Shown: positions 2,593 to 29,281, counted from the first letter of the stretch. The stretch: 29,281 nt of DNA from a virus (IMGVR_UViG_2923302340_000002:1-29281), one strand, 5' to 3'. Numbers and translations are program-made. The notes: generated from the sequence alone by a model not told the origin.

Positions 2593-4164
2593 TTACTGAG
2601 AGCTCAGATCAACTTTCCAGGGCAACAGATCGCGTACCCGGTTTGCCGGCCAGTCCTGGATATGTTCAATGACGTAGCGCAGCCACTTTTCTGGCTCCAC
2701 ATTGTTCAGACGGCATGTGCCGATCAGCGAGTACAACACCGCCGCATGTTCACCACCGCTGTCGGAACCCGCGAACATCCAGTTTTTCCGGCCTACGGCC
2801 ACTCCCCGTAAGGCGTTCTCTGCGATGTTGTTGTCGATTTCCACCCAGCCATTACTGCAGTACACGTTCAGTGCATCCCACTGTTTCAGCAGGTATGCGA
2901 ACGCTTTTGCCGTATCTGAGTGACGCGACAGTGTTTTCATCTGTTGCTGTATCCAGTCATACAGTGACTGCATCAGTGGCGCGGCTCTGGTTTTTCTTGC
3001 CGCCAGACGCTGTTCTGCTGAACAGCCCCGGACCTCTGCCTCGATGGCATACAGTTCACCGATACGCTGCAGGGCTTCCGTGGTGATGTCGGTGGGCGCT
3101 CTTGCATGCACATCGTGGATTTTTCTCCGGGCATGAGCCATACACGCGGCTTCCGTTATTCTGCCGGATTCGTATAACGCCCGGTAACCACCGTAAGCAT
3201 CGGCCTGAAGCACACCGCTGTAACCGGCCAGGTGATTTTGTGGATGGATACCTTTCCGGTCCGGACTGTACGCGAACCAGACCGCCGGGGGCATCTGTGA
3301 ACCGGCGTTACGGTCATCACGGACGTAGACCCACAGCCGGGCTGTCCGGGGTTTACCGCTGCCCGGCTCCTGGACCGGGACGGGGATATCATCAGCATGG
3401 ACTTTACCGGGCATCAGCACATACTGGCGCAGGACGTCATACAGCGGCTCCAGTAGTTCAGCAACGGCACCTGTCCAGCGCCCCAGCGTGGCGCGGCTCA
3501 GCTCCACACCCTGACGGCGGTATATCTCTGACTGGCGGTATAACGGCAGATGGTCTGCATATTTTCCGGTGACGACATGGGCCAGGAGCCCCGCTCCGGC
3601 ATAACTGCGTGCAATGGGTTTTGAAGGTACTGGTGCCTGCACGATATGGTCGCACCGGCAACAGGCCAGTTTCGGACGTTGTGTTTCGATAACCTTAAAG
3701 GCGCTGCTGATAAGCTCCAGTTGCTCTGACACATCACATCCCAGAGAACTGAGTTCACCACCACAGGCCGGACAGCATTCCTCTTCCGGCCGGATAACCC
3801 GGGTTTCACGGGGAAGTGAGGCCGGTAACGGTTTACGGGCTGAAGACTGGCGCAGGGCGGATGGCAGTACCGGGTCATATTGCTCACCCAGCGTTTCCGC
3901 CATTTCTTCCTGAAGTGCGCTGATTCGCTCCTGTGCTTCCTGTATCTGCCGTTCGGTTTTTGCGCGAAGTTTTTCTGAGCTTTTACCGAACTGCATACGC
4001 TGCAGTTTCGCAACCAGCGCCTTCAGCCGGTTGATTTCGGAAGCATAAGCCGCCACCCGCTGTGAGAGCAGGCGGTTGTATTCAGCCATCTGGCGTATGG
4101 TGTCCTGTTGCGTCTGCAACAGTGCCCGCAGGCGGGCGTTCTCATGAGCAAGTGAGGTGTCCAT
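2593..4164 (-). CDS. tnpC: IS66-family transposase (TnpC / orf3)
   Basis: 523-aa ORF with an N-terminal coiled-coil region ([33 protein letters not shown]), a Cys-rich zinc-binding segment (CPACGG...CCRCDH) and a C-terminal catalytic region, as typical of IS66 TnpC. Confidence 0.9.
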
Positions 4165-4183
4165 ATCCTCACTTTACAACGGG

Positions 4184-4531
4184 TTATATACGGATTCCAG
4201 CGCGTTCCGTTCGTTTCGGGTGCTTCCAGTTGATACCTTCAAGAAGCATGGATAACTGAGCCGGAGTAAGGTGCACCTTGCCGTCACGGGTGACTGGCCA
4301 GACGAAGCGGCCCCGCTCCAGGCGTTTGGTGAAGAGGCACAGTCCGTCACTGTCAGCCCACAACACTTTTATCTGGTCACCCCGGCGTCCGCGGAAGATG
4401 AACAGGTGTCCGGAGAACGGGTCATCCTTCAGGACGTTCTGAACTTTTGATGCCAGGCCGTTAAAACCATTTCGCATGTCGGTGATACCGGCAACCAGCC
4501 AGATACGCGAACCGGCAGGGAGAGATATCAT
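4184..4531 (-). CDS. tnpB: IS66-family accessory protein (TnpB / orf2)
   Basis: 115-aa ORF MISLPAGSRIWLVAGITDMRNGFNGLASKVQNVLKDDPFSGHLFIFRGRRGDQIKVLWADSDGLCLF, typical IS66 Orf2. Its start overlaps the upstream ORF stop. Confidence 0.9.
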   Translation of the reverse strand: MISLPAGSRIWLVAGITDMRNGFNGLASKVQNVLKDDPFSGHLFIFRGRRGDQIKVLWADSDGLCLFTKRLERGRFVWPVTRDGKVHLTPAQLSMLLEGINWKHPKRTERAGIRI

Positions 4532-5208
4532 CAGTGGCTGCTCCCTTTCATTTCGCGGATAAGTGTCTGTAATAACGCCGGCGTCAGTTTACCTTTAAGC
4601 CTGAGAGTTCCGGCCGGCAGAACCAGCTCGCAGCACAGACTGTCTGGCAGTGTATTTATCTGTTCAGGTATCTGCACTGGTGCCGGGATTTTATTATCCG
4701 GCTCCGGCGTTAACGTCACGGGAAGTAGCGATGTTTCATGTTCGCCGGGCGGCTGCAGGCCGCCGTTACGCCAGAGATGCCGCCAGTTAAAGAGCAGGTT
4801 ATCGTTGATTCCGTTTTCCCGGGCGATCTGCGCCACACAGGCTCCGGGCTGCAGTGACTGCTCCACTAAGGCGATTTTAAACTCATAAGGGAAGTTGGGC
4901 CGCCGGGGACGTTTTTTTACCACGGGGGCTTCGGATATAACGGTGCTTTCAGGACGTACGACTGGTACCGTGGAAAATTGTCCGTAAAGGCAGGCATCAA
5001 GTTCCTGCTCCGACATGCCTGCGGGCAAAGGCCACGAAAGGCCAGCTCTCCGAAAGCGCACGAACATACTACAAACTGTTGATTTTGGTACACCCAGGCG
5101 ACGCCCGGCCACAACCCGGGGTAAATGTTCTTCAAAGTGAAGACGTAAAGCTTCAGTGATCCAGGTCCGGTGTTTCATACGATAGTGTCCATTAAAAATG
5201 ATGGACAT
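4531..5208 (-). CDS. tnpA: IS66-family helix-turn-helix protein (TnpA / orf1); the true start may be internal to the 225-aa ORF
   Basis: The ORF contains the segment RPNFPYEFKIALVEQSLQPGACVAQIARENGINDNLLFNWR typical of IS66 Orf1. It is longer than usual for this protein, so the start codon is uncertain. Confidence 0.7.
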   Translation of the reverse strand: MSIIFNGHYRMKHRTWITEALRLHFEEHLPRVVAGRRLGVPKSTVCSMFVRFRRAGLSWPLPAGMSEQELDACLYGQFSTVPVVRPESTVISEAPVVKKRPRRPNFPYEFKIALVEQSLQPGACVAQIARENGINDNLLFNWRHLWRNGGLQPPGEHETSLLPVTLTPEPDNKIPAPVQIPEQINTLPDSLCCELVLPAGTLRLKGKLTPALLQTLIREMKGSSH

Positions 5209-5244: not shown

Positions 5245-5718
5245 TTAAATGAGCCGGTTACGTTTCAGGAAATCAACATGTCGGTTTTCCAGTTCCGGAA
5301 AACGCCGCTGTACCGAGAGAGGGATCCCGTCAAGAATACTGGCAATTTCACCTGCGATCCGTGACAGCACGAAAGTACAGAATGCGGTTTCCACCACCTC
5401 TGCGGAGTCTCTGGCATTCTTCAGCTCCTGTGCGTCGGCCTGCGCACGCGTAAGTCGATGGCGTTCGTACTCAATAGTCCCAGGCTGGAGATCTGCCTCA
5501 CTGGCAGCCCTGTAACCCTCAACCTCTTTACGGAGTTTTTCATTTTCGATATCAGCTTCCCTCTGCGCATACCACTGAATTGCCATGGCGGTATCAAATA
5601 CAGATTCAACGCCCTTACCACCTCCGGAGACACAAGGGAGTCCCTGAGATTGCCAGCGTTCAATCGTTCGCGGATCCACGTTGAAAATTTCGGCAAGTTT
5701 CTTTTTATTAACCTTCAT
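5245..5718 (-). pseudogene. nu1: Terminase small subunit nu1, truncated by the IS66 insertion after about codon 153, with the last four codons and the stop supplied by IS sequence
   Basis: [39 protein letters not shown]...[15 protein letters not shown] follows lambda Nu1 and then diverges into NRLI-stop exactly at the IS junction (5261/5262). Confidence 0.85.
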
Positions 5719-17980: not shown

Positions 17981-18688
17981 ATGGTTCAGAATGAAAAAGT
18001 GCGCAAAGAATTCGCCCAGCGGCTAGCGCAAGCCTGTAAAGAAGCTGGTCTTGATGAACATGGTAGGGGAATGGCCATAGCCCGTGCCCTTTCTCTTTCG
18101 TCCAAAGGCGTTAGCAAATGGTTTAATGCTGAGTCTTTACCGCGTCAGGAAAAAATGAATGCGCTTGCGAAATTTCTAAACGTTGATGTTGTTTGGCTTC
18201 AGCACGGCACTTCGTTAAATGGAGCGAATGATGAAGATACTCTTTCATTTGTTGGCAAATTAAAAAAAGGGTTAGTGCGCGTGGTTGGTGAGGCAATTCT
18301 TGGTGTTGATGGTGCCATCGAGATGACCGAAGAGCGCGATGGGTGGCTCAAGATTTATAGCGATGATCCAGATGCCTTTGGTCTTCGTGTGAAAGGAGAC
18401 AGCATGTGGCCTAGAATAAAATCAGGAGAATATGTACTCATTGAGCCTAACACCAAAGTATTCCCGGGTGATGAGGTGTTTGTCAGAACCGTTGAAGGAC
18501 ACAACATGATTAAGGTTCTTGGCTATGACAGAGATGGAGAATACCAATTTACAAGCATCAACCAAGACCACAGGCCAATAACGTTGCCTTATCATCAAGT
18601 AGCAAAGGTGGAGTATGTGGCTGGTATTCTGAAGCAATCTCGCCATCTGGATGACATCGAGGCAAGGGAGTGGCTGAAAAGTTCGTGA
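17981..18688 (+). CDS. cI: CI repressor (HTH domain plus LexA-like S24 autopeptidase domain), immunity type not lambda
   Basis: 235-aa ORF with an N-terminal HTH region and a C-terminal LexA-like S24 peptidase-like segment (VKGDSMWPRIKSGEYVLIEPN...). Divergent from cro. Confidence 0.85.
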   Translation: MVQNEKVRKEFAQRLAQACKEAGLDEHGRGMAIARALSLSSKGVSKWFNAESLPRQEKMNALAKFLNVDVVWLQHGTSLNGANDEDTLSFVGKLKKGLVRVVGEAILGVDGAIEMTEERDGWLKIYSDDPDAFGLRVKGDSMWPRIKSGEYVLIEPNTKVFPGDEVFVRTVEGHNMIKVLGYDRDGEYQFTSINQDHRPITLPYHQVAKVEYVAGILKQSRHLDDIEAREWLKSS

Positions 18689-18793: not shown

Positions 18794-19531
18794 TTGCAAA
18801 ATAACTATCTACAGGTTATAGCCTATACTAGGCGCATGAATGATGGTATGACCAAGCCATTCCTTTGTACTTGCCAAGATGGGCTGGCTTACATAGTTAA
18901 AGGAAGGCCAAAACTTCGCCAAAAAGAGCTTGTAGCAGAATTTATTGCCGCCCATCTAGCAAAACAGATAGGTCTGCCATGTCCTGATTTTTGCATTGTT
19001 GATGTTGATTGTGGGTTAATCGAGTTCATGCCTGACTTGCGTGGTGAGCTTTTGCCTGGACCTGCATTTGCTACCCGCTTTATTGAAAATGCATCAATCA
19101 TAAATATTCAACAAGCAAGGAGTGCTGTAACCATTCAGGAACAAAAGAAAATATTCTTCTTTGACCGCTGGATAAACAACGCAGACAGATCATTGACTGA
19201 CATTGGTGGTAATGTAAACATAATTTACGATGCATTTAACAATAGGTATTACCTGATTGACCATAATCTGGCGTTCGCGCAGGATACAAGATCTCATGAG
19301 TATGATGTCCATGTGTATTCGCCGAATGGAAGACCGTGGGTTTTCGACATGCTCGACGAACCCGAACTGATGGATCTTGCAAATGATGCTATTAGTTCAG
19401 TAGAGGAGAAATTTAATCAGCTTCCGGATGAGTGGTTTTCAACCGATGAAGAACGAAGGCTAATGCTGAATGAGATAATGAACTGCCTGAACAGAGTGCA
19501 CGACAGAGAGTTTTGGAGTAACATCAAATGA
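18794..19531 (+). CDS. Kinase-like protein (tentative HipA-like / atypical kinase fold) at the rexA-equivalent position; the true start may be the internal ATG at 18836
   Basis: Same strand as cI and 105 bp downstream of it. Contains WINNADRSLTDIGGNVNIIYD ... YYLIDHNLAF, resembling a kinase catalytic loop (D...N) followed about 20 residues later by a DFG-like IDHN. Motif-level resemblance only. Confidence 0.4.
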   Translation: MQNNYLQVIAYTRRMNDGMTKPFLCTCQDGLAYIVKGRPKLRQKELVAEFIAAHLAKQIGLPCPDFCIVDVDCGLIEFMPDLRGELLPGPAFATRFIENASIINIQQARSAVTIQEQKKIFFFDRWINNADRSLTDIGGNVNIIYDAFNNRYYLIDHNLAFAQDTRSHEYDVHVYSPNGRPWVFDMLDEPELMDLANDAISSVEEKFNQLPDEWFSTDEERRLMLNEIMNCLNRVHDREFWSNIK

Positions 19532-20346
19532 CCACACCATGCCTGTATAGCATTATTAGATATGCTCCATATGCAGAAACCGAAGAGTTTGCTAATGTCG
19601 GTGTGGTTCTTTGTGCCCCGAAATTAGGTCAGTTTTGCTTTAAACTGACCCAAAGCAACAATGCCAGAGTAAAAAACTTTTTTCAGGATGAAATCATTTT
19701 CCCTCACGCGAGGGATGCAATTGCAAGAGAGCTAAAATTTGCTCAAGAGCAAAGTTATAAATTCAATTCTCCTGAAAAATTAGCAAATTTTTTCAACTAC
19801 TTAATTGGCAGGAAAGAGTCAATCATTCATTTTAGCTCTGCAAGAGTTGCAATGTCTGCTTGTCCACAAGACATGATGCACATACTTTTTAATAAGTTTG
19901 TACATCATTCAGAAATAACAAAAGAATCTCGTGAGACCATCCTGACGAGAGAGCTTAAGCATCGTTTCTCTCATTATAACGAACTCAGGAACGCCTTTAA
20001 AAAGGAAATGCTTGGTGGTGAACTAACGCGGTTTTCTGTACCATTTGTTGCCCGTCACGATGGAGAGATTTTATGTGCTATCAAACCCCTAACATTCACT
20101 CAGGACAAGCCTGAGAAAATGTTGGAGCACTGCGACTCTTGGACGGCCAAAATTCTGCGCGCCGCCAGTGAAAAAATTTTATCTGTCTCAAATGTGTTAT
20201 TTACGATAGATGCACCTCGCCAGCCAAGTGAGCTTGAGGTAAAAGCGATGAGTGAGATTCGTAAGACATTCGATGAGAAAGGTATAAATCACGTAGAGCA
20301 TCAGGATGAAGCATCAATAGTAAAGTTTGCTAAGCAAGCAATTTAA
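19528..20346 (+). CDS. Hypothetical 272-aa protein, translationally coupled partner of the kinase-like gene (rexB-equivalent position)
   Basis: Its start overlaps the upstream stop (ATGA at 19528-19531). It is followed directly by a strong intrinsic terminator. No recognised motif. Confidence 0.4.
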   Translation: MTTPCLYSIIRYAPYAETEEFANVGVVLCAPKLGQFCFKLTQSNNARVKNFFQDEIIFPHARDAIARELKFAQEQSYKFNSPEKLANFFNYLIGRKESIIHFSSARVAMSACPQDMMHILFNKFVHHSEITKESRETILTRELKHRFSHYNELRNAFKKEMLGGELTRFSVPFVARHDGEILCAIKPLTFTQDKPEKMLEHCDSWTAKILRAASEKILSVSNVLFTIDAPRQPSELEVKAMSEIRKTFDEKGINHVEHQDEASIVKFAKQAI

Positions 20347-20692: not shown

Positions 20693-20790
20693 GATCACCC
20701 AACCACATGAGCTGTGGGATGCAATGCCGAAGCAACCGTCTCAGGAGGAGCTTCGAGATTGCATCACCAAAGTTTATTCGGGAGGAATCT

Positions 20791-21063
20791 ATGTCCAGAA
20801 AAACAGAATTTAAAGGCACCGCAGCTTCTCGCCGTAGAGCTCGTCGCGCAAACCTGCAAAGTCAGGAGGCGATTAGCTCCGACAAGCTACACAGGCCAAC
20901 CACCTCACGAGTGGTCTTGCAATGCAAGCGCAAACCAGCAATGAGAGCAGAAGTTATAACTCTGACAACGTTGATCAGAAAATATGAAGGTTCAACTTGT
21001 CTTCCAAACGTAGCTCTTTACGCGGCAGGCTACCGGAAATCAAAACAACTGACGGCGAGGTAA
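20791..21063 (+). CDS. N: N-type antiterminator (arginine-rich motif), start taken at the internal ATG with a GGAGG Shine-Dalgarno
   Basis: MSRKTEFKGTAASRRRARRANLQ: arginine-rich RNA-binding motif near the N-terminus, the first gene of the leftward operon after nutL. The ORF track extends the frame upstream to 20707. Confidence 0.7.
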   Translation: MSRKTEFKGTAASRRRARRANLQSQEAISSDKLHRPTTSRVVLQCKRKPAMRAEVITLTTLIRKYEGSTCLPNVALYAAGYRKSKQLTAR

Positions 21064-22774: not shown

Positions 22775-23143
22775 ATGTCAAACATCAAAAAATACATCAT
22801 TGATTACGACTGGAAAGCATCAATAGAAATTGAAATCGACCATGACGTAATGACAGAGGAAAAACTTCACCAGATTAATAATTTCTGGTCAGACTCTGAA
22901 TACCGACTCAATAAACACGGCTCTGTATTAAATGCTGTATTAACCATGCTGGCGCAACATGCTCTGCTTATAGCAATTTCAAGCGACTTAAATACATATG
23001 GTGTTATGTGTGAGTTCGACTGGAATGATGGAAATGGTCAGGAAGGATGGCCTCCAATGGATGGTAGCGAAGGAATAAGAATTACCGATATCGATACATC
23101 AGGAATATTTGATTCAGATGATATGACTATCAAGGCCGCCTGA
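22775..23143 (+). CDS. Hypothetical acidic protein (122 aa)
   Basis: ORF with an upstream GAGGATATGAATAG Shine-Dalgarno-like region. No recognised motif. Confidence 0.45.
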   Translation: MSNIKKYIIDYDWKASIEIEIDHDVMTEEKLHQINNFWSDSEYRLNKHGSVLNAVLTMLAQHALLIAISSDLNTYGVMCEFDWNDGNGQEGWPPMDGSEGIRITDIDTSGIFDSDDMTIKAA

Positions 23144-23215: not shown

Positions 23216-23380
23216 ATGCAATATGCCATTGCAGGGTGGCCTGTTGCTGGCTGCCCTTCCGAATCTTTACTTGAACGAATCATCCGTAAATTACGTGACG
23301 GATGGAAACGCCTTATCGACATACTTAATCAGCCAGGAGTCCCAAAAAATGGATCAAACACTTATGGCTATCCAGACTAA
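23216..23380 (+). CDS. cIII: CIII (54 aa; absent from the ORF track because it is under 60 aa)
   Basis: Manual translation from the ATG at 23216 gives MQYAIAGWPVAGCPSESLLERIIRKLRDGWKRLIDILNQPGVPKNGSNTYGYPD, matching lambda CIII apart from one residue. Preceded by an AAGGAG Shine-Dalgarno. Confidence 0.85.
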   Translation: MQYAIAGWPVAGCPSESLLERIIRKLRDGWKRLIDILNQPGVPKNGSNTYGYPD

Positions 23381-23462
23381 ATTCACTATCGCCACTTTTA
23401 TTGGCGATGAAAAGATGTTTCGTGAGGCCATCGAAGCCTACAGAAAATGGAGGTCAAAATGA
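23349..23462 (+). CDS. kil: Kil-like protein (37 aa as read; may be shortened relative to lambda Kil)
   Basis: MDQTLMAIQTKFTIATFIGDEKMFREAIEAYRKWRSK, overlapping the cIII 3' end in another frame as in lambda. Confidence 0.5.
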   Translation: MDQTLMAIQTKFTIATFIGDEKMFREAIEAYRKWRSK

Positions 23463-23647
23463 TTCCGGTAGAACTGGCGAAAACTCCAGAATTAAGTCGA
23501 TTAAAAAGAGAATATCACATTGCTGAGGCTCGTTACTGGCGTAAAGCGGGAGATAAATCAAAGAAACAACTTTGTTTATGGCAGGCTCAAAGAGAGCGCA
23601 TGAATGAGCGCGAGTTTCTTTCCGTCCCATCCGAATTACCATTCTGA
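23447..23647 (+). CDS. Hypothetical small basic protein (62-66 aa)
   Basis: ORF overlapping the kil stop. Start could be 23447 or 23459. Confidence 0.4.
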   Translation: MEVKMIPVELAKTPELSRLKREYHIAEARYWRKAGDKSKKQLCLWQAQRERMNEREFLSVPSELPF

Positions 23648-23655
23648 GGCAAATT

Positions 23656-24336
23656 ATGGGAACTGCGACATTAATACTCGGTGAATCTGGCACCGGAAAA
23701 TCAACCAGCATGAGAAATATCAATCCAGAGGAAGCAATACTTATAAAACCAATAGGCAAGCCGCTACCATTTAAATCAAAAGACTGGCTTGCATGGGATG
23801 CCAGAGCAAAAAAAGGAACCGTAGTTACCACTGACAAATGGGACGTAATAGTTGCCGTAATTAAGCGTGCTCACGAATACGGGAAAAGAATCGTTATTGT
23901 TGATGACTTCCAGTATGTGATGAGCAATGAGTTTATGCGCCGCTCAGAAGAAAAATCGTTTGATAAATTTACTGAGATAGGCCGCCACGCATGGGAGGTG
24001 ATTAAGGCTGCACAGGATGCACCTGATGACCTGAGAGTCTATTTTCTTGCACACACCGAAGAAACCCCTATGGGGCGCGTGAAAATGAAAACTATCGGCA
24101 AAATGCTGGACGAGAAAATCACTGTCGAAGGCATGTTTACTATAGTTCTTCGCACCCTTACCCGTGATGACCAGTTCTTTTTCACCACAAAAAACAACGG
24201 TGCAGACACTGTTAAATCCCCAATGGGAATGTTTGACTCCAATGAGATTGATAACGATCTCTCTTTCGTCGATGCCACTGTTTGTGATTACTACGGCATC
24301 AATAATGTTCATCAAATTAAGGAAAACGCAGCATGA
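23656..24336 (+). CDS. Sak4-like RecA-core P-loop ATPase (single-strand annealing / recombination protein)
   Basis: 226 aa with Walker A LILGESGTGKST and Walker B-like IVIVDDF. Size and position (replacing Red bet/exo) fit phage Sak4-type proteins. Confidence 0.6.
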   Translation: MGTATLILGESGTGKSTSMRNINPEEAILIKPIGKPLPFKSKDWLAWDARAKKGTVVTTDKWDVIVAVIKRAHEYGKRIVIVDDFQYVMSNEFMRRSEEKSFDKFTEIGRHAWEVIKAAQDAPDDLRVYFLAHTEETPMGRVKMKTIGKMLDEKITVEGMFTIVLRTLTRDDQFFFTTKNNGADTVKSPMGMFDSNEIDNDLSFVDATVCDYYGINNVHQIKENAA

Positions 24337-24920
24337 GCAACGTGATTTTTACTTATAACGAAGAAGCAGCACTGACCGCAGGGCAAGGTGGTTTTATTAA
24401 CGAAACTGGCGCTCATATCATTACCATTACTGAAGCAGAACTCAAGCAATCAGAAAAAGGCGCAAAATTTATTGAGTTTTCTGGCGAATCCGACGACGGA
24501 CGTAAAATCCAATATCTTAGCGTCTGTGTTCAGAAAAATGACGGAACGGAAAACAAATTTGGCGCAAATGTCGTTCACGCCATGATGGGGTGTGCCGGTA
24601 TTGGACAATTAACGCAACATATGGTTTCCGCCAGTAAATTTGTTGCGCCTGAATTTCATGGAAAGAAAATCGGGTTAGTGCTCCAGAAAGTATTAACCAC
24701 AAACAAAAAGACTGGCGCAGACAGCTACCAGATGGAAATACGCATCCCGTTTATTGCACAAACAGGTCAAACCCTTAAAGAAAAGGCGGAAGGCAAGCAA
24801 CCAGAAACTATCGCCAACATGGTTGCCAGCCTCAAAGATAAAGACAATCGCTCTAAAAACGTAAGCCAGAATCATGCAGATGATTATGGTTACAGCCAGA
24901 ACGATTACCCTCCTTTCTGA
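24333..24920 (+). CDS. Putative ssDNA-binding partner of the Sak4-like ATPase (SSB-like C-terminal tail)
   Basis: Translationally coupled to the ATPase. The C-terminus ends with an acidic/aromatic tail DDYGYSQNDYPPF, reminiscent of SSB C-terminal tails. Confidence 0.4.
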   Translation: MSNVIFTYNEEAALTAGQGGFINETGAHIITITEAELKQSEKGAKFIEFSGESDDGRKIQYLSVCVQKNDGTENKFGANVVHAMMGCAGIGQLTQHMVSASKFVAPEFHGKKIGLVLQKVLTTNKKTGADSYQMEIRIPFIAQTGQTLKEKAEGKQPETIANMVASLKDKDNRSKNVSQNHADDYGYSQNDYPPF

Positions 24921-24943
24921 TTACTGAAAATAAGGCTCCCATT

Positions 24944-25237
24944 ATGCCAGCGCCTCTGTATGGTGCGGATGACCCGCGCCGCTGTTCCGGCAATTCCGTA
25001 TCGGAGGTGCTGGATAAATTCAGAAAAAACTACGACCTGATAATGTCGCTACCGCAGGAAACGAAAGAGGAAAAGGAATTTCGCCATTGTATATGGCTTG
25101 CAGAGAAAGAAGAACGCGAGCGAATTTACCAGACATCAATCCGACCATTCCGCAAAGCCACATATACCCACTTCCCTGAAATTGACCCTCGCCTGCGTAA
25201 TTACCGCTCACGCTATGGCGCTATCAGTAATGACTGA
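24944..25237 (+). CDS. Hypothetical protein (97 aa)
   Basis: ORF in the early-left operon. No recognised motif. Confidence 0.4.
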
Positions 25238-25248
25238 GGAATTTACCA

Positions 25249-25415
25249 TGAGAGGACTTGCATACAATCCCGGCATTCTTCCAGCAGAAATGATTATTCG
25301 CCAACGCGTAAAGCCAATGCCATCGAGAGAGGAATTGCTTAAGAGAAATAGTTTCGGTTCTGTTAATGACAACAAATATCTGAATGCGATGTGGCGTAAA
25401 GGAGGCAAGCAGTGA
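25249..25415 (+). CDS. Hypothetical small protein (55 aa, start at MRGLAYNPG)
   Basis: Internal ATG preceded by GAGGAA. Its stop overlaps the start of the next gene. The longer track ORF (25098-25415) overlaps the preceding gene. Confidence 0.3.
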
Positions 25416-26227
25416 ACAAGATTGACTATCAGGCACTGCGTGAAAAGGCAGAGAAAGCAACTAAAGGAAGCTACATCGTAGGGCATACATCTGTTAACCA
25501 GCACGGCAATTTAACAGGAGTTTTTGTTTGTCAAAAATGGAAAGGAGAACCCGGTGGTGTGATTGCGGAATGTCATGTTAACTGCCTGGTTGAAACAGAT
25601 GTTCAGGCTTATGCAAACGCTGAATTTATTGCTGCTTTTAATCCAAATGTTGCGCTGGCACTGCTGGATGAACGGGAAAGAAACCAGCAATACATCAAAC
25701 GCCGCGACCAGGAGAACGAGGATATTGCGCTAACGGTAGGGAAGCTGCGCGTTGAGCTGGAAGCAGCAAAAAAGCGCATAGCAGAACTGGAAGCCGAACC
25801 TGTAAGCCAAGCTTACAACTTGCCAGAATTAATCGAAGGCATGGAAGTTTCCATTGATGTAAGTACTTGTGATGCTGATTTAGGTAATCGCTATTTCGGC
25901 ACCGTCACCGAGGCGTCAGAACTTGATACTGCCAAGAATGGTTACATCCTCCTGGTTCAGGACGCAGAGCCAAACTTCGATATAAATGGCAACTATCAGG
26001 TAACTCCGGATGGTTGGATAAGCTGTAGTGAGCGAATGCCTGAAAAGGGCCAGAACGTGCTTATTTCGGTGAATTTCGATAGCTCTCTGGTTGAACCGCT
26101 AATATGCGCCGCACGCTATACCGGAAGCACCTTTCGGCGCGGAGATGCAACGATTAAGCCGGGTAATGGTATTGAGCAAGCAACTCACTGGATGCCGCTA
26201 CCGGAACCGCCGCAGGAGGTGAAGTGA
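25412..26227 (+). CDS. Ead/Ea22-like early protein
   Basis: 271 aa with a central coiled coil ([23 protein letters not shown]) and a C-terminal region (HWMPLPEPP) typical of lambdoid Ea22-like proteins. Confidence 0.5.
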
Positions 26228-26799
26228 TGAACAACTTAATGATCGACCTTGAGACGATGGGGAAAAATAAGGATGCACCGATCGTTTCCATTGGCGCGGT
26301 GTTCTTCACTCCAGAAACCGGAGACATCGGACAAGAATTCTATGCGGTTGTCAGCCTAGACAGTGCTATGAAGCAAGGAGCTACACCTGACGGCGATACC
26401 ATCCTGTGGTGGTTGAAACAAAGCCCTGAAGCGCGAGCTGCAATCTGTATTGATGATACTTTGTCGATCAGCGATGCTCTCTCAGAACTAAACCATTTCA
26501 TTAACCGGCACGCAGACAATACGAAATATTTAAAAGTCTGGGGTAACGGGGCCACCTTCGACAACGTAATTTTACGTGGAGCTTACGAGCGAGCAGGACA
26601 AATCTGCCCGTGGGCATACTGGAATGACCACGATGTACGCACGATCGTTACGCTTGGGCGTTCCATCGGATTCGACCCCAAAATGGACATGCCTTTCGAT
26701 GGCGAACGGCACAACGCCCTGGCCGATGCCCGTCATCAGGCAAAATATGTTTCCGCTATCTGGCAGAAATTAATTTCTGCCACCAGCACAGAATTATGA
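26224..26799 (+). CDS. DnaQ-like 3'-5' exonuclease (DEDDh family)
   Basis: MIDLETMG (Exo I motif), WGNGATFD (Exo II-like) and HNALADARHQA (Exo III with His). Confidence 0.7.
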   Translation: MMNNLMIDLETMGKNKDAPIVSIGAVFFTPETGDIGQEFYAVVSLDSAMKQGATPDGDTILWWLKQSPEARAAICIDDTLSISDALSELNHFINRHADNTKYLKVWGNGATFDNVILRGAYERAGQICPWAYWNDHDVRTIVTLGRSIGFDPKMDMPFDGERHNALADARHQAKYVSAIWQKLISATSTEL

Positions 26800-26808
26800 T
26801 TTTCCCGG

Positions 26809-27108
26809 GTGCAGTCGGTTTTGATGGAGAAAATTATGAACACCTTGTTTTTACTGATGGCTGAATTCAATACCCCTAACATTGAACTCTCAGCAGTTAG
26901 CCAAAAGTACTTTGGCATGAGTCCAGCCACGGCAGAAGCAAAAGCAAACGCTTGTAAGTTGCCCGTTCCAACATATCGCATCGGCACATCACAAAAAGCA
27001 AAACGTTGCATCAATATTCAGGATCTTGCGGAATATATTGACAAAAGACGGGAAGAAGGGCGAGCTGAGTGGGAAAAAGTCAGAACGGAAAAACAAAAAT
27101 ATAACTAA
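26809..27108 (+). CDS. xis: Excisionase-like / PrtN-family DNA-binding protein
   Basis: Small basic protein with an N-terminal HTH-like segment (LSAVSQKYFGMSPATAEAKANACKLPVPTYRIG), the last gene of the leftward operon before a terminator. Confidence 0.5.
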   Translation: MQSVLMEKIMNTLFLLMAEFNTPNIELSAVSQKYFGMSPATAEAKANACKLPVPTYRIGTSQKAKRCINIQDLAEYIDKRREEGRAEWEKVRTEKQKYN

Positions 27109-27123
27109 ACTAAAACTATGGAT

Positions 27124-27153
27124 AACCCGTATATGTACGGGTTATTTTTCTTT
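27124..27153 (+). terminator. Intrinsic terminator at the end of the early-left operon
   Basis: AACCCGTA-TATG-TACGGGTT hairpin followed by ATTTTTCTTT. Confidence 0.65.
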
Positions 27154-27690
27154 ATCACTATCTTTTCTTGATTTGAACAATCCACTAACAACGAAACCAA
27201 CCAAACCAACAATACTAATTGTACTTGTACCTAGTAATGCAACGATCGCTTCAACTGGAGGCTTTCCTTCATGTGCAATAAGAAACGATGTAAACATTGC
27301 GACAACGAATAAGCACCAACACGACATAAACCAAACCGTGAATGAGGCCATTTTTGTCCGAAGCTCATTGTCTATTTCTTTACCAGTTGCGTCAGCTATC
27401 TTATCCCGTACTTGTGATTTGAGCATATCAAGCTGAGCTTGAAGACTGTCCATTCTGTTCTGCTGCATAAACTCATGCAATGCACCAGTATTAGAACCAA
27501 ACTCTTCTGCCTCCAGAATAGCTTTATTTTCTGAAGAAGAATCATCGTCGCTCTCATGATTAGACGGCTCAAATGCAGATTTAAAAATCTGTTCTTGACT
27601 GTCAGTAGAGTTTAAGGATGCTTCAGAGCGACCATTTTCAACACCTGCGGCCGCTCCGATAAGTTTATAGATATCTGAATTGTGAGACAT
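27142..27690 (-). CDS. Membrane protein with an acidic N-terminal domain and two C-terminal transmembrane helices (candidate toxin partner of the Panacea-domain protein)
   Basis: 182 aa with C-terminal hydrophobic helices (FTVWFMSCWCLFVVAMFTSFLIA and AIVALLGTSTISIVGLVGFVVSGLF). Lies 22 bp downstream of the Panacea-domain gene on the same strand. Confidence 0.45.
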   Translation of the reverse strand: MSHNSDIYKLIGAAAGVENGRSEASLNSTDSQEQIFKSAFEPSNHESDDDSSSENKAILEAEEFGSNTGALHEFMQQNRMDSLQAQLDMLKSQVRDKIADATGKEIDNELRTKMASFTVWFMSCWCLFVVAMFTSFLIAHEGKPPVEAIVALLGTSTISIVGLVGFVVSGLFKSRKDSDKEK

Positions 27691-27712: not shown

Positions 27713-28201
27713 TCAGAGGCCCTGACATTGCTGTCGGTTATTCAATAAATCATGATAATAAGCCTTGATCGCATCATTTGAGATGATTGACGAGCCAATA
27801 CCATTATAAGCTTGTGACCAAGGCGTACCAGGCATATGAGTTAGAGTTGATAACTCAATTCCATTTTTCGAGCCGTAAAATTTATAAACAGCCCCTATAA
27901 TGCTCTCTGCTTGTGGATCCATAGTAACAATGCCACCAAAAGGAGCTACTGCTACATTCGTAACAGGTTTATTCCCATAATCTTTGAAAGCATCGTACAT
28001 TCCAGGAATAACTGGACCGTACTTCCACGCGGAGACACATTCATTGAGCAAAGGCTTACCTGTTAATGCTAAATAGTAACCATGTGCAATATAAGTAAGC
28101 TTCTGCAGTTGCATGTGGGTCAGAGGATTATGATGTTGGTTTCCCAACGTTATGAATTTATTGGCTATTTGTACCGGGCTGTACATAACCACCCTCCTCA
28201 T
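27713..28201 (-). CDS. Panacea (DUF4065) domain protein, antitoxin-type
   Basis: 162 aa with YSPVQIANKFI ... THMQLQKLTYIAHGYYLALTGKPLLNECVSAWKYGPVIPGMYDAFKDYG, the pattern I associate with the Panacea domain. Confidence 0.6.
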   Translation of the reverse strand: MRRVVMYSPVQIANKFITLGNQHHNPLTHMQLQKLTYIAHGYYLALTGKPLLNECVSAWKYGPVIPGMYDAFKDYGNKPVTNVAVAPFGGIVTMDPQAESIIGAVYKFYGSKNGIELSTLTHMPGTPWSQAYNGIGSSIISNDAIKAYYHDLLNNRQQCQGL

Positions 28202-28886
28202 TACACTGAATGTGCAAACAGTATCATCACTGTTATCTCAACCTAGCACGAACAAAAAAATTTTGGAAGATTGCAAGAGCAATTCACTGTGTTTATAACC
28301 AGCAAAGAACTGTACATATACACAGGTTACAAATTGGTGGCGAATTATACCTGCAGAAGTTGCGATGTCAACAAAGCGACCATCACAGTGTTTTGCATCT
28401 CACACTGCTATGACAAAAAATCTTTTGATAGGTTCCCAATAGGCTCCCACAAAACACATAACCAATTGTTTTTCAAAAACGATACATCCTATCGAGCATT
28501 GGTGCAACGCTAAACCGACCACTCCAGTGAACGTCAGTTTTTTCAGGCATTGCGCTGGTTTGGTTGATTTTTTGCATTTCAGAATTACCGTGCATTTTCA
28601 AATGTAGAGATTATTTTATCGATATATCATGGGGTTATGTTATTCAGCATCACTGTTCAGGAGGCTCAATAGCGGGGTACTATACCATAACAACAGGAAG
28701 CGCCTGTCTCATTGCAAAAGAAAATTGAGATCCTCTCAAGGCATGAAGCTCTCACGAAGTGATGGAAATAATCTTATTAGCCGTTAGCTTTGTTAAGGCC
28801 AATGATAAACAATCCAGGTTCGACGATAAATAAAAATCACACATTAAACTCCGGTGATATCTCTCCCTGCTAATAGCACTGATAGA

Positions 28887-28917
28887 GAAAAAAAGAACCC
28901 AATAAGCATTGGGTTCT
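28887..28917 (-). terminator. Intrinsic terminator (bidirectional hairpin) downstream of the partial gene at the window end
   Basis: AGAACCCA-ATAAGCAT-TGGGTTCT hairpin with an A-run on one side and a T-run on the other. Confidence 0.55.
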
Positions 28918-28957
28918 TTTATGTAATACCTTCCATACCATCGAAGAACTTCACATA

Positions 28958-29281
28958 TTATTTTACTAGTTCAATACCAAATAGATCATAAATTGAATTA
29001 GAGATATCGTTTGGAATTTGAATCAATTCCGTTGAATCTGGGTCACACGATTGTACGAAGTCATTTAATTTCTGCGCCGCACCATGCATTTTTGTAACGT
29101 CTTTTAGGACTCGTTTTCCTTCGTCTTCCTGACGTTTCATATCAGTTACAATGTCATTGAAATCCAGTTTCCCTGCGACTGCCAGATTTTTCATCTCCTT
29201 CAGATTTTTTTTCATCTCTTGTTGAGATAACGTTTTCACCTGATCTGTTATGTATTTTTCGCAATACTCATCAATATCCAC
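28958..29281 (-). CDS. Hypothetical protein, C-terminal part (gene continues beyond the window end)
   Basis: The ORF runs to the window edge and is followed by a terminator. No recognised motif; not an integrase-like C-terminus. Confidence 0.4.
   Translation of the reverse strand: MDIDEYCEKYITDQVKTLSQQEMKKNLKEMKNLAVAGKLDFNDIVTDMKRQEDEGKRVLKDVTKMHGAAQKLNDFVQSCDPDSTELIQIPNDISNSIYDLFGIELVK

Follow-up and report, generated by a model that had tools for sequence, protein, structure and literature searches.

An HK620-type module occupies the place of the lambda Red genes

What takes the place of gam-bet-exo in a lambdoid prophage that carries none of these genes? The question is raised by the viral sequence IMGVR_UViG_2923302340_000002:1-29281 (29,281 nt; this whole stretch is here called the window), whose leftward early (pL) operon is read on the plus strand. 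An initial annotation of the segment downstream of cIII and kil had proposed that the Red recombination genes were replaced by a Sak4-like P-loop ATPase, a coupled protein with a tail like that of single-stranded DNA (ssDNA)-binding protein (SSB), and a DnaQ-like exonuclease of the DEDDh type. Our analysis makes it very probable that an HK620-type recombination (Rec) module, hkaM-sak4-ssb-abc2, is expressed from pL and acts by the annealing mechanism set out below, and that the exonuclease is a separate accessory gene unspecific to Sak4.

HK620 was the best phage match to the window by megablast, with 97.5% DNA identity from cIII through abc2. The HK620 module hkaM-hkaL(sak4)-hkaK(ssb)-hkaJ(abc2) (Clark 2001; Lopes 2010; Hutinet 2018, PMC5928155) agrees with that of the window in its four genes and in their order and spacing after cIII-kil, and the encoded proteins are 100% (HkaM), 99.6% (Sak4), 99.5% (SSB), and 96% (Abc2) identical to those of the window. 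Judged by this near identity, the segment where lambda has gam-bet-exo holds the already characterized HK620-type system, and the proposal of a Sak4-type annealing module in place of Red held up. When the lambda proteins Bet, Exo, and Gam, the P22 proteins Erf, Abc1, and Arf, and the Rac proteins RecT and RecE were used as tblastn queries against the whole window, the best E value was 1.1 or worse. Because no such annealase or nuclease was found, the module falls outside the lambda Red, RecET, and Erf classes, and the absence of Bet and Exo signatures noted earlier was borne out. The three genes named in the initial annotation are likewise real, but they are not contiguous, and four genes in the segment had been overlooked: the hkaM-like gene, abc2, a DUF2737 gene, and an Ead/DUF551 fusion gene.

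Sak4 and SSB correspond to a biochemically characterized pair

The ATPase gene, sak4, lies at positions 23656 to 24336 (+) and encodes a core-only RecA/Rad51-like ATPase of 226 amino acids (aa). The Walker A motif GESGTGKST, already recognized in the initial annotation, is located at residues 9 to 17, followed by a Walker B motif (IVIVDD) at residues 79 to 84. As is characteristic of the Sak4 family, the protein has a P-loop RecA core with both Walker motifs and is without the RecA C-terminal domain. Hidden Markov model searches for Sak4 and AAA_24, which the initial annotation had suggested as a check, gave a full-length match to phrog_2872 ("Sak4-like ssDNA annealing protein"; E = 3.9e-108) and a Pfam AAA_24 match above threshold (E = 5e-7; 30.2 bits versus a gathering cutoff of 27). 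The sole difference from HK620 HkaL is E43D (99.6% identity). By analogy with this nearly identical protein, the window's Sak4 is predicted to be an ATP-dependent single-strand annealing protein (SAP).

Could the ATPase instead be an unrelated P-loop protein, such as a partition or packaging ATPase, and no recombinase at all? In Pfam it has low-scoring, generic matches (AAA_24, 30 bits; AAA_22, 28 bits), no NCBIfam match was obtained, and the names that it carries at NCBI are simply "ATP-binding protein" or "AAA family ATPase." A PDB sequence search with Sak4 gave no match. Against this stand the phrog_2872 match, a coupling to the SSB gene that is invariant in 80/80 loci (see below), and, above all, 99.6% identity to an HK620 protein that was purified and assayed as an annealase. 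The terminase genes, Nu1 and gpA, are located elsewhere in the window. A packaging or partition ATPase was rejected on these grounds; because of the identity to HK620 Sak4 we consider the alternative refuted, its probability being virtually nil.

The partner gene, ssb (24333 to 24920, +), encodes the cognate phage SSB (HkaK or "SSB-2" type, formerly DUF669), and both its length of 195 aa and its SSB-like tail agree with the initial annotation. The start of ssb and the stop of sak4 share 4 nt (ATGA), so that a cognate ssb is directly adjacent here, as is the case for ~80% of sak4 genes (PMC5928155). The protein matched phrog_743 ("single strand DNA binding protein"; E = 1.8e-66), differs from HK620 HkaK solely by V153E (99.5% identity), and has the C terminus ...DDYGYSQNDYPPF, of which the NDYPPF tail is identical to that of HK620. 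Searches of Pfam up to an E value of 10 gave no family for this protein, despite its name at NCBI ("DUF669 domain-containing protein" or hypothetical), and likewise none for HkaM; NCBIfam was uninformative for all module proteins, and a PDB sequence search with SSB gave noise (E = 0.26 or worse). The identity of the SSB therefore rests on the PHROG match, the identity to HK620, and the fold.

The fold was examined in an AlphaFold2 model built with 35 homologues (mean predicted local distance difference test score, 81; predicted template modeling score, 0.71), which has a beta-rich core at residues 26 to 141 and a disordered tail at residues 177 to 192. A Foldseek search of the PDB with this model placed PrgE of pCF10 at the top (E = 5.6e-5; probability, 1.0), followed by Bacillus subtilis SsbA and a long series of bacterial SSBs (E = 0.02 to 0.3); template modeling scores of these fold matches were modest (0.4 to 0.6). 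The model points to a core that is SSB-like in fold, namely, an oligonucleotide/oligosaccharide-binding (OB) fold followed by a disordered linker and the tail. Among 34 SSB homologues, the tails end in ..PF or ..DF (..D..PF type), and several end in DFDDDIPF, the tail of Escherichia coli SSB. HkaK has been described as a distant SSB homologue (PMC5928155), and the literature is divided on homology to SSB.

Binding of ssDNA and recombineering by the cloned pair, the experiments proposed in the initial annotation, have been published for the HK620 proteins, each of which differs from the window's by one residue (PMC5928155). Purified HK620 Sak4 requires ATP to bind ssDNA and to anneal complementary strands (Hutinet 2018, PMC5928155), and purified HkaK is a bona fide SSB. 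With the SSB, Sak4 recombineering rises from ~15-fold to ~210-fold above background, and the last six residues of the SSB, NDYPPF, are needed both for this increase and for loading Sak4 onto ssDNA that is coated with SSB. No strand exchange is catalyzed by the pair, and coexpression of Abc2 with Sak4 leaves oligonucleotide recombineering unaffected (PMC5928155). The main yield of the present analysis is the correct annotation of this characterized Sak4/SSB pair.

HkaM and Abc2 complete the module

The first gene of the module (23459 to 23647, +) encodes a 62-aa HkaM-like protein that is 100% identical to HK620 HkaM and matched phrog_1723 (E = 4.5e-33). It occupies the slot of P22 arf, and HkaM was part of the HK620 module that was tested (Hutinet 2018, PMC5928155). 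HkaM was seen to accompany both Sak4-type and Erf-type annealases: epsilon34 gp37 (L172, 10623 to 10811) is 68% identical. Two diverged Sak4 loci (L164 and L170, among L091 to L170) have a P22 Arf homologue in the upstream slot of hkaM.

The last gene of the module, abc2 (24944 to 25237, +), encodes a P22-type anti-RecBCD protein with a full-length match to Pfam Anti-RecBCD_p2 (PF11043; residues 1 to 97 of 97; E = 6.2e-65) and a match to phrog_656 (E = 4e-55). Its product is 96% identical to HK620 HkaJ and 94% identical to epsilon34 Abc2. The initial annotation had rightly expected the interplay with RecBCD to differ from that of lambda, but it had assumed a plain loss of RecBCD inhibition together with Gam; Abc2 is present instead. 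By analogy with P22, Abc2 is predicted to replace Gam as a hijacker of RecBCD, not a blocker. Downstream of near-identical Sak4-SSB pairs, Abc2 occurs in two sequence types, ~97% and ~62% identical to that of the window.

To gauge how constant this arrangement is, we examined 80 IMG/VR loci with close relatives of Sak4. The SSB gene was located at +677 from sak4 in all 80. HkaM was detected in 70 of them (68 at -197 nt from sak4 and 2 displaced), as was Abc2 (69 loci at +1288 from sak4 and 1 displaced). The exact Sak4 and SSB sequences are each present on at least 1,000 public contigs.

The DEDDh exonuclease is encoded outside the module

The exonuclease gene (26227 to 26799, +) encodes a DEDDh (DnaQ-like, DexA/Rv2179c-family) 3'-5' exonuclease of 190 aa counted from its ATG, with an alternative GTG start at 26224. 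Its assignment to the DEDDh class in the initial annotation was correct. The protein matched Pfam Rv2179c-like (PF16473) over the full length of the family (E = 1.3e-75) and contains the Exo I (DxE), Exo II (D), and Exo III (Hx4D) motifs, and an alignment that included a T4-type DexA and two phage homologues showed no variation at the five catalytic residues (D7, E9, D112, H162, and D167). All five are thus common to the window's exonuclease and T4 DexA or the PF16473 family; overall identity to the T4-type DexA is 30% (29% by tblastn for dexA of T4-like phages), and the window's protein is without several of the DexA insertions. Among solved structures, PDB 8KEL ("Exodeoxyribonuclease"; E = 4e-11) is the closest to it in sequence, and we take this entry to be T4 DexA. 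NCBIfam gave a subthreshold RNase AS match alone, PADLOC gave a weak generic DEDDh match alone, and a literature search on Rv2179c in phages found nothing relevant. The exact protein is also recorded from E. coli (WP_107235457.1).

The proposal that this enzyme belongs to the annealing module did not survive the follow-up. The gene starts 986 nt past the end of abc2, with the DUF2737 and Ead/DUF551 genes in between, and it ends 9 nt upstream of xis; it is not tightly packed in the cluster of SAP, SSB, and anti-RecBCD genes, as a nuclease gene of the module would be. A 2025 survey of 325 lambdoid phages found that P22 and HK620 (Sak4, SSB-2) Rec modules encode no nuclease, counted DnaQ-like nucleases as Rec members if contiguous with the module genes, as in epsilon34, and left sporadic DnaQ-type nuclease genes "very near int" out of Rec modules (PMC12315714).

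Distribution tells the same story from both sides. We collected 80 IMG/VR loci in which the exonuclease is at least 96% identical to that of the window, and for 60 of them the sequence upstream extends over 5 kb or more (actually no less than 6.4 kb, and for most the full 10 kb). Not one of the 80 loci contained Sak4, Bet, Erf (P22 or epsilon34 type), RecT, Abc2, or Gam, and a PrtN-type xis lay immediately downstream of the exonuclease in 80/80. Phage mEp460, with a 99% identical exonuclease, has a whole early-left operon without a recognizable Rec module. Conversely, among the 54 Sak4 loci with at least 3.5 kb of downstream sequence, an exonuclease homologue was present in a single one (L112), where it belongs to a second, epsilon34-type Erf-SSB-exonuclease-Abc2 module that follows an abc2 remnant. 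HK620 and HK629 have no exonuclease next to their modules.

These data bear on an alternative in which Sak4, its SSB-tail partner, and the exonuclease form one three-part module, the exonuclease partnering the annealase as Exo partners Bet. The polarity of DEDDh enzymes is 3'-5', whereas annealing pathways need 5'-3' resection, which would be supplied here by Abc2-modified RecBCD. HK620 does without the exonuclease, yet its four-gene module gives full stimulation of recombineering (PMC5928155). Together with the two unrelated intervening genes, the co-occurrence counts of 0/80 and 1/54, and the exclusion of int-proximal DnaQ genes from Rec modules in the literature (PMC12315714), these points make the three-part module very unlikely, and on polarity, spacing, and co-occurrence we rejected the exonuclease as the module's counterpart of Exo.

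Several observations nevertheless weigh in the other direction. The three genes appear to share a transcription unit, within which no plus-strand terminator was found. In epsilon34, gp34, which is 60% identical to the window's exonuclease, is tightly packed between SSB and Abc2 and has been accepted as a Rec member (PMC12315714). In phages Evi and PhiR42_1, a RecE-like scaffold has the same DEDDh domain in its nuclease position. The co-occurrence samples consist mostly of near-identical E. coli prophages, so that inheritance blocks rather than independent events were counted; the counts establish modular independence and are not statistics over independent events. Finally, the function predicted from HK620 is carried over E43D and V153E, the substitutions being conservative or in the linker.

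In Evi and PhiR42_1, the DEDDh domain (58 to 64% identical to the window's) forms the C terminus of a protein of ~825 aa encoded between kil and xis, and residues 262 to 625 of the Evi protein are 39% identical to residues 278 to 591 of RecE. By its sequence, this protein appears to be a RecE scaffold that carries a 3'-5' DEDDh domain in place of the 5'-3' PD-(D/E)XK nuclease of RecE. The two genes (L004, 4078 to 6558, in Evi; L005, 4081 to 6552, in PhiR42_1) are annotated "exodeoxyribonuclease VIII" and have no adjacent recT gene. Because the family also occurs in epsilon34-type modules and on RecE-like scaffolds, a recombination-related role of the window's exonuclease is possible but unsupported. 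We conclude that the exonuclease is an accessory gene distinct from the module, mobile and traveling together with a PrtN-type xis, and neither required for nor specific to the Sak4 pathway.

Candidate roles for the xis-linked exonuclease

Candidate roles for such an accessory enzyme are scavenging or trimming of nucleic acids and an anti-phage function. In one version, which leaves Sak4, SSB, and Abc2 to act as described, the exonuclease would be a DexA-like enzyme acting on foreign or host nucleic acid, either in an "HREX"-type defense against T-even phages containing 5-hydroxymethylcytosine (5hmC) or as a scavenger of host DNA and oligonucleotides during lytic growth. This is possible, though short of probable. 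Its relatives fit, given the 8KEL match, the 30% identity to a T4-type DexA, and the invariant catalytic residues, and so does the position of the gene in a variable accessory region beside xis, since it moves independently of Rec modules and is also found in prophages without one. An E. coli DexA homologue, EcD, cuts 5hmC DNA and protects against T4 (PMC12153337). The EcD type has lost the tetramerization residue equivalent to DexA D90 and has kept the catalytic and 5hmC recognition residues (PMC12153337), whereas the window's exonuclease keeps a serine and an aspartate aligned with DexA S87 and D90 ("SISD" versus "STID"), and EcD is defined by the loss of that aspartate. The EcD accession, HAK9828821.1, was not among the cluster members listed for the window's exonuclease. 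The claim of defense comes from a single paper and from plasmid expression (PMC12153337), and placement in the pL operon suggests lytic rather than lysogenic expression, which fits scavenging better than defense.

It is less likely, and in our view unlikely, that the xis-linked exonuclease, instead of being a bystander or scavenger, has a specific role not described so far, either as a trans-acting trimmer of 3' ends or flaps that is recruited by SSB tails and serves any Rec module, of phage or host, or as a prophage nuclease against the modified DNA of superinfecting phages. The trimming form would explain why the enzyme is present inside epsilon34-type modules and fused to RecE scaffolds. 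This xis-proximal DexA-like exonuclease is widespread.

Proposed mechanism of the module

For the preferred reading, an HK620-type module with a separate exonuclease, we infer expression from pL because of the gene order, the overlapping or closely spaced genes, and the lack of an internal terminator. On induction, transcription from pL after N antitermination would express hkaM-sak4-ssb-abc2. Abc2 would then bind RecC of the host RecBCD enzyme and block its response to Chi, and the modified RecBCD would become a 5'-3' resection machine, so that the phage would need no Exo of its own. This step is modeled on findings for P22 Abc2 (Murphy 2000, as cited in PMC5928155; Wilkinson 2022, as cited in PMC12315714). 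The resulting 3' single strands would be coated by the phage OB-fold SSB, whose NDYPPF tail would recruit ATP-bound Sak4, and Sak4 would anneal complementary SSB-coated strands, a single-strand annealing reaction without strand exchange. Coating, recruitment, and annealing have been demonstrated for the HK620 proteins, one residue different each, and the window's proteins are expected to behave alike. The prediction for this prophage is annealing that is independent of RecA and dependent on ATP and SSB, with RecBCD hijacked by Abc2 and not inhibited by Gam.

Operon setting of the module and neighboring genes

Upstream, the pL operon includes genes for an S24/LexA-type repressor (17981 to 18688, +), the N antiterminator (20707 to 21063, +; Pfam N_peptide, E = 4e-31), and a DUF2528 protein (22775 to 23143, +), the last located upstream of cIII. 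That cIII and kil precede the module, as the initial annotation held, is clear from both genes. The gene for the FtsH inhibitor cIII (23216 to 23380, +) matched Pfam Lambda_CIII (E = 2.6e-29), and its product is 96% identical to HK620 cIII (46 aa); it is an upstream landmark of the operon, outside the recombination module. The gene for the division inhibitor Kil (23349 to 23462, +), with whose ATG at 23349 the initially annotated interval began, encodes a protein with 97% identity to HK620 Kil along its entire length of 37 aa and has the same annotated position in HK620 and E. coli 2824.

The two genes that separate abc2 from the exonuclease gene are likewise outside the module. The first, a small hkaI-like DUF2737 gene (25248 to 25415, +; Pfam DUF2737, E = 1.5e-30), aligns lengthwise with HK620 HkaI and is a spacer. 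The second (25412 to 26227, +) belongs to the variable "ea" region and encodes a 271-aa fusion of Ead/Ea22-like and DUF551 domains (Pfam Ead_Ea22, E = 2.9e-34; DUF551, E = 5.2e-22) with partial similarity to HK620 hkaG and hkaE. The last gene of the operon encodes a PrtN-family excisionase, Xis (26809 to 27108, +; Pfam PyocinActivator, E = 3.9e-23; phrog_1300 "excisionase," E = 6e-40). In a consensus scan, a bidirectional terminator-like hairpin with a 12-bp stem (27120 to 27147) closes both the pL operon and a converging minus-strand gene; in the interval from abc2 to the exonuclease gene, the same scan gave no terminator of this kind on the plus strand. A single Chi octamer (GCTGGTGG) was found in the 29-kb window, in minus-strand orientation at 26780, inside the exonuclease gene, and none in plus orientation across the window. 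This single Chi fits the low Chi content reported for phages with an anti-RecBCD protein (PMC12315714).

Other features of the prophage were noted in passing. In the slot of lambda rexAB, which is flanked here by the cI-type repressor and N, a gene for a HipA_2 kinase-like protein (18794 to 19531, +; Pfam, E = 2.6e-75) overlaps a DUF3037 gene (19528 to 20346, +), and PADLOC reported the two as the candidate defense pair PDC-M66A/B (E = 9e-19 and 9e-15). Beyond xis lie two minus-strand genes (27142 to 27690 and 27713 to 28201), of which one, for a Panacea/SocA-like antitoxin-domain protein (Pfam, E = 6e-18; NCBIfam SocA, E = 1e-27, below cutoff), is located just upstream of the other, for a 182-aa protein of no known family. 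The pair is probably toxin-antitoxin cargo between xis and the prophage end, and E. coli 2824 has different cargo in its place. No integrase follows xis; from ~28430 to 29281, the sequence matches the E. coli 2824 chromosome, spanning a 5' fragment of dusA (tRNA-dihydrouridine synthase) and a DUF2713 gene. The prophage thus seems to end in an attachment site of the dusA type, and int would presumably be located at its opposite end. An IS66-family insertion element (2593 to 5208, -; G+C content, ~55%) lies between Nu1 (5245 to 5718) and gpA (566 to 2491) and consists of a helix-turn-helix open reading frame (4531 to 5208), TnpB (4184 to 4531), and a DDE transposase (2593 to 4164), all on the minus strand. 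This insertion may uncouple or inactivate packaging, and the prophage could therefore be defective.

Comparison with known recombination systems

In the collections searched, ~46% of the window was the most that any complete E. coli genome or phage record covered, and the window therefore combines known blocks in a new mosaic. Among left-arm ends, that of E. coli 2824 (sak4-ssb-abc2-DUF2737-hypothetical-exonuclease-xis) is the most similar. Relative to HK620, the source of the closest module, the window differs in the downstream "ea" mosaic, which here consists of the Ead/DUF551 fusion, the DEDDh exonuclease, and the PrtN-type xis, and in packaging: the window phage has a lambda-like cos arrangement with the Nu1/gpA terminase, whereas HK620 is a P22-like headful packager.

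The epsilon34-type Rec module (hkaM-like, Erf-like, SSB, DnaQ-like exonuclease, and Abc2; class as defined in PMC12315714) has an HkaM 68%, an Abc2 94%, and an exonuclease 60% identical to those of the window. In epsilon34, the annealase is Erf-like and the exonuclease is wedged between SSB and Abc2, whereas the window's exonuclease lies outside the module beside xis. Both types occur in tandem at 1535 to 6156 of L112 (IMGVR_UViG_2681813004_000020), where hkaM-sak4-ssb of the HK620 type, together with an abc2 remnant of 60 aa, precedes genes for an Erf-like protein (235 aa), an SSB (168 aa), a DEDDh exonuclease (182 aa), and an intact abc2; the arrangement looks like a recombination junction within abc2.

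P22 arf-erf-abc1-abc2 has the same layout as the window's module and the same Abc2 (HK620 versus P22, 94%, according to PMC5928155), but the window has Sak4 for Erf, SSB for Abc1, and the unrelated HkaM for Arf. With lambda gam-bet-exo, finally, the module shares the slot after cIII-kil and the tasks of RecA-independent annealing and RecBCD control, without homology. The window's annealase is a RecA-fold ATPase that would need ATP and a cognate SSB, in contrast to the Rad52-like ring of lambda, and where lambda encodes a 5'-3' exonuclease and blocks RecBCD with Gam, the window's module has no such phage exonuclease and would hijack RecBCD through Abc2.

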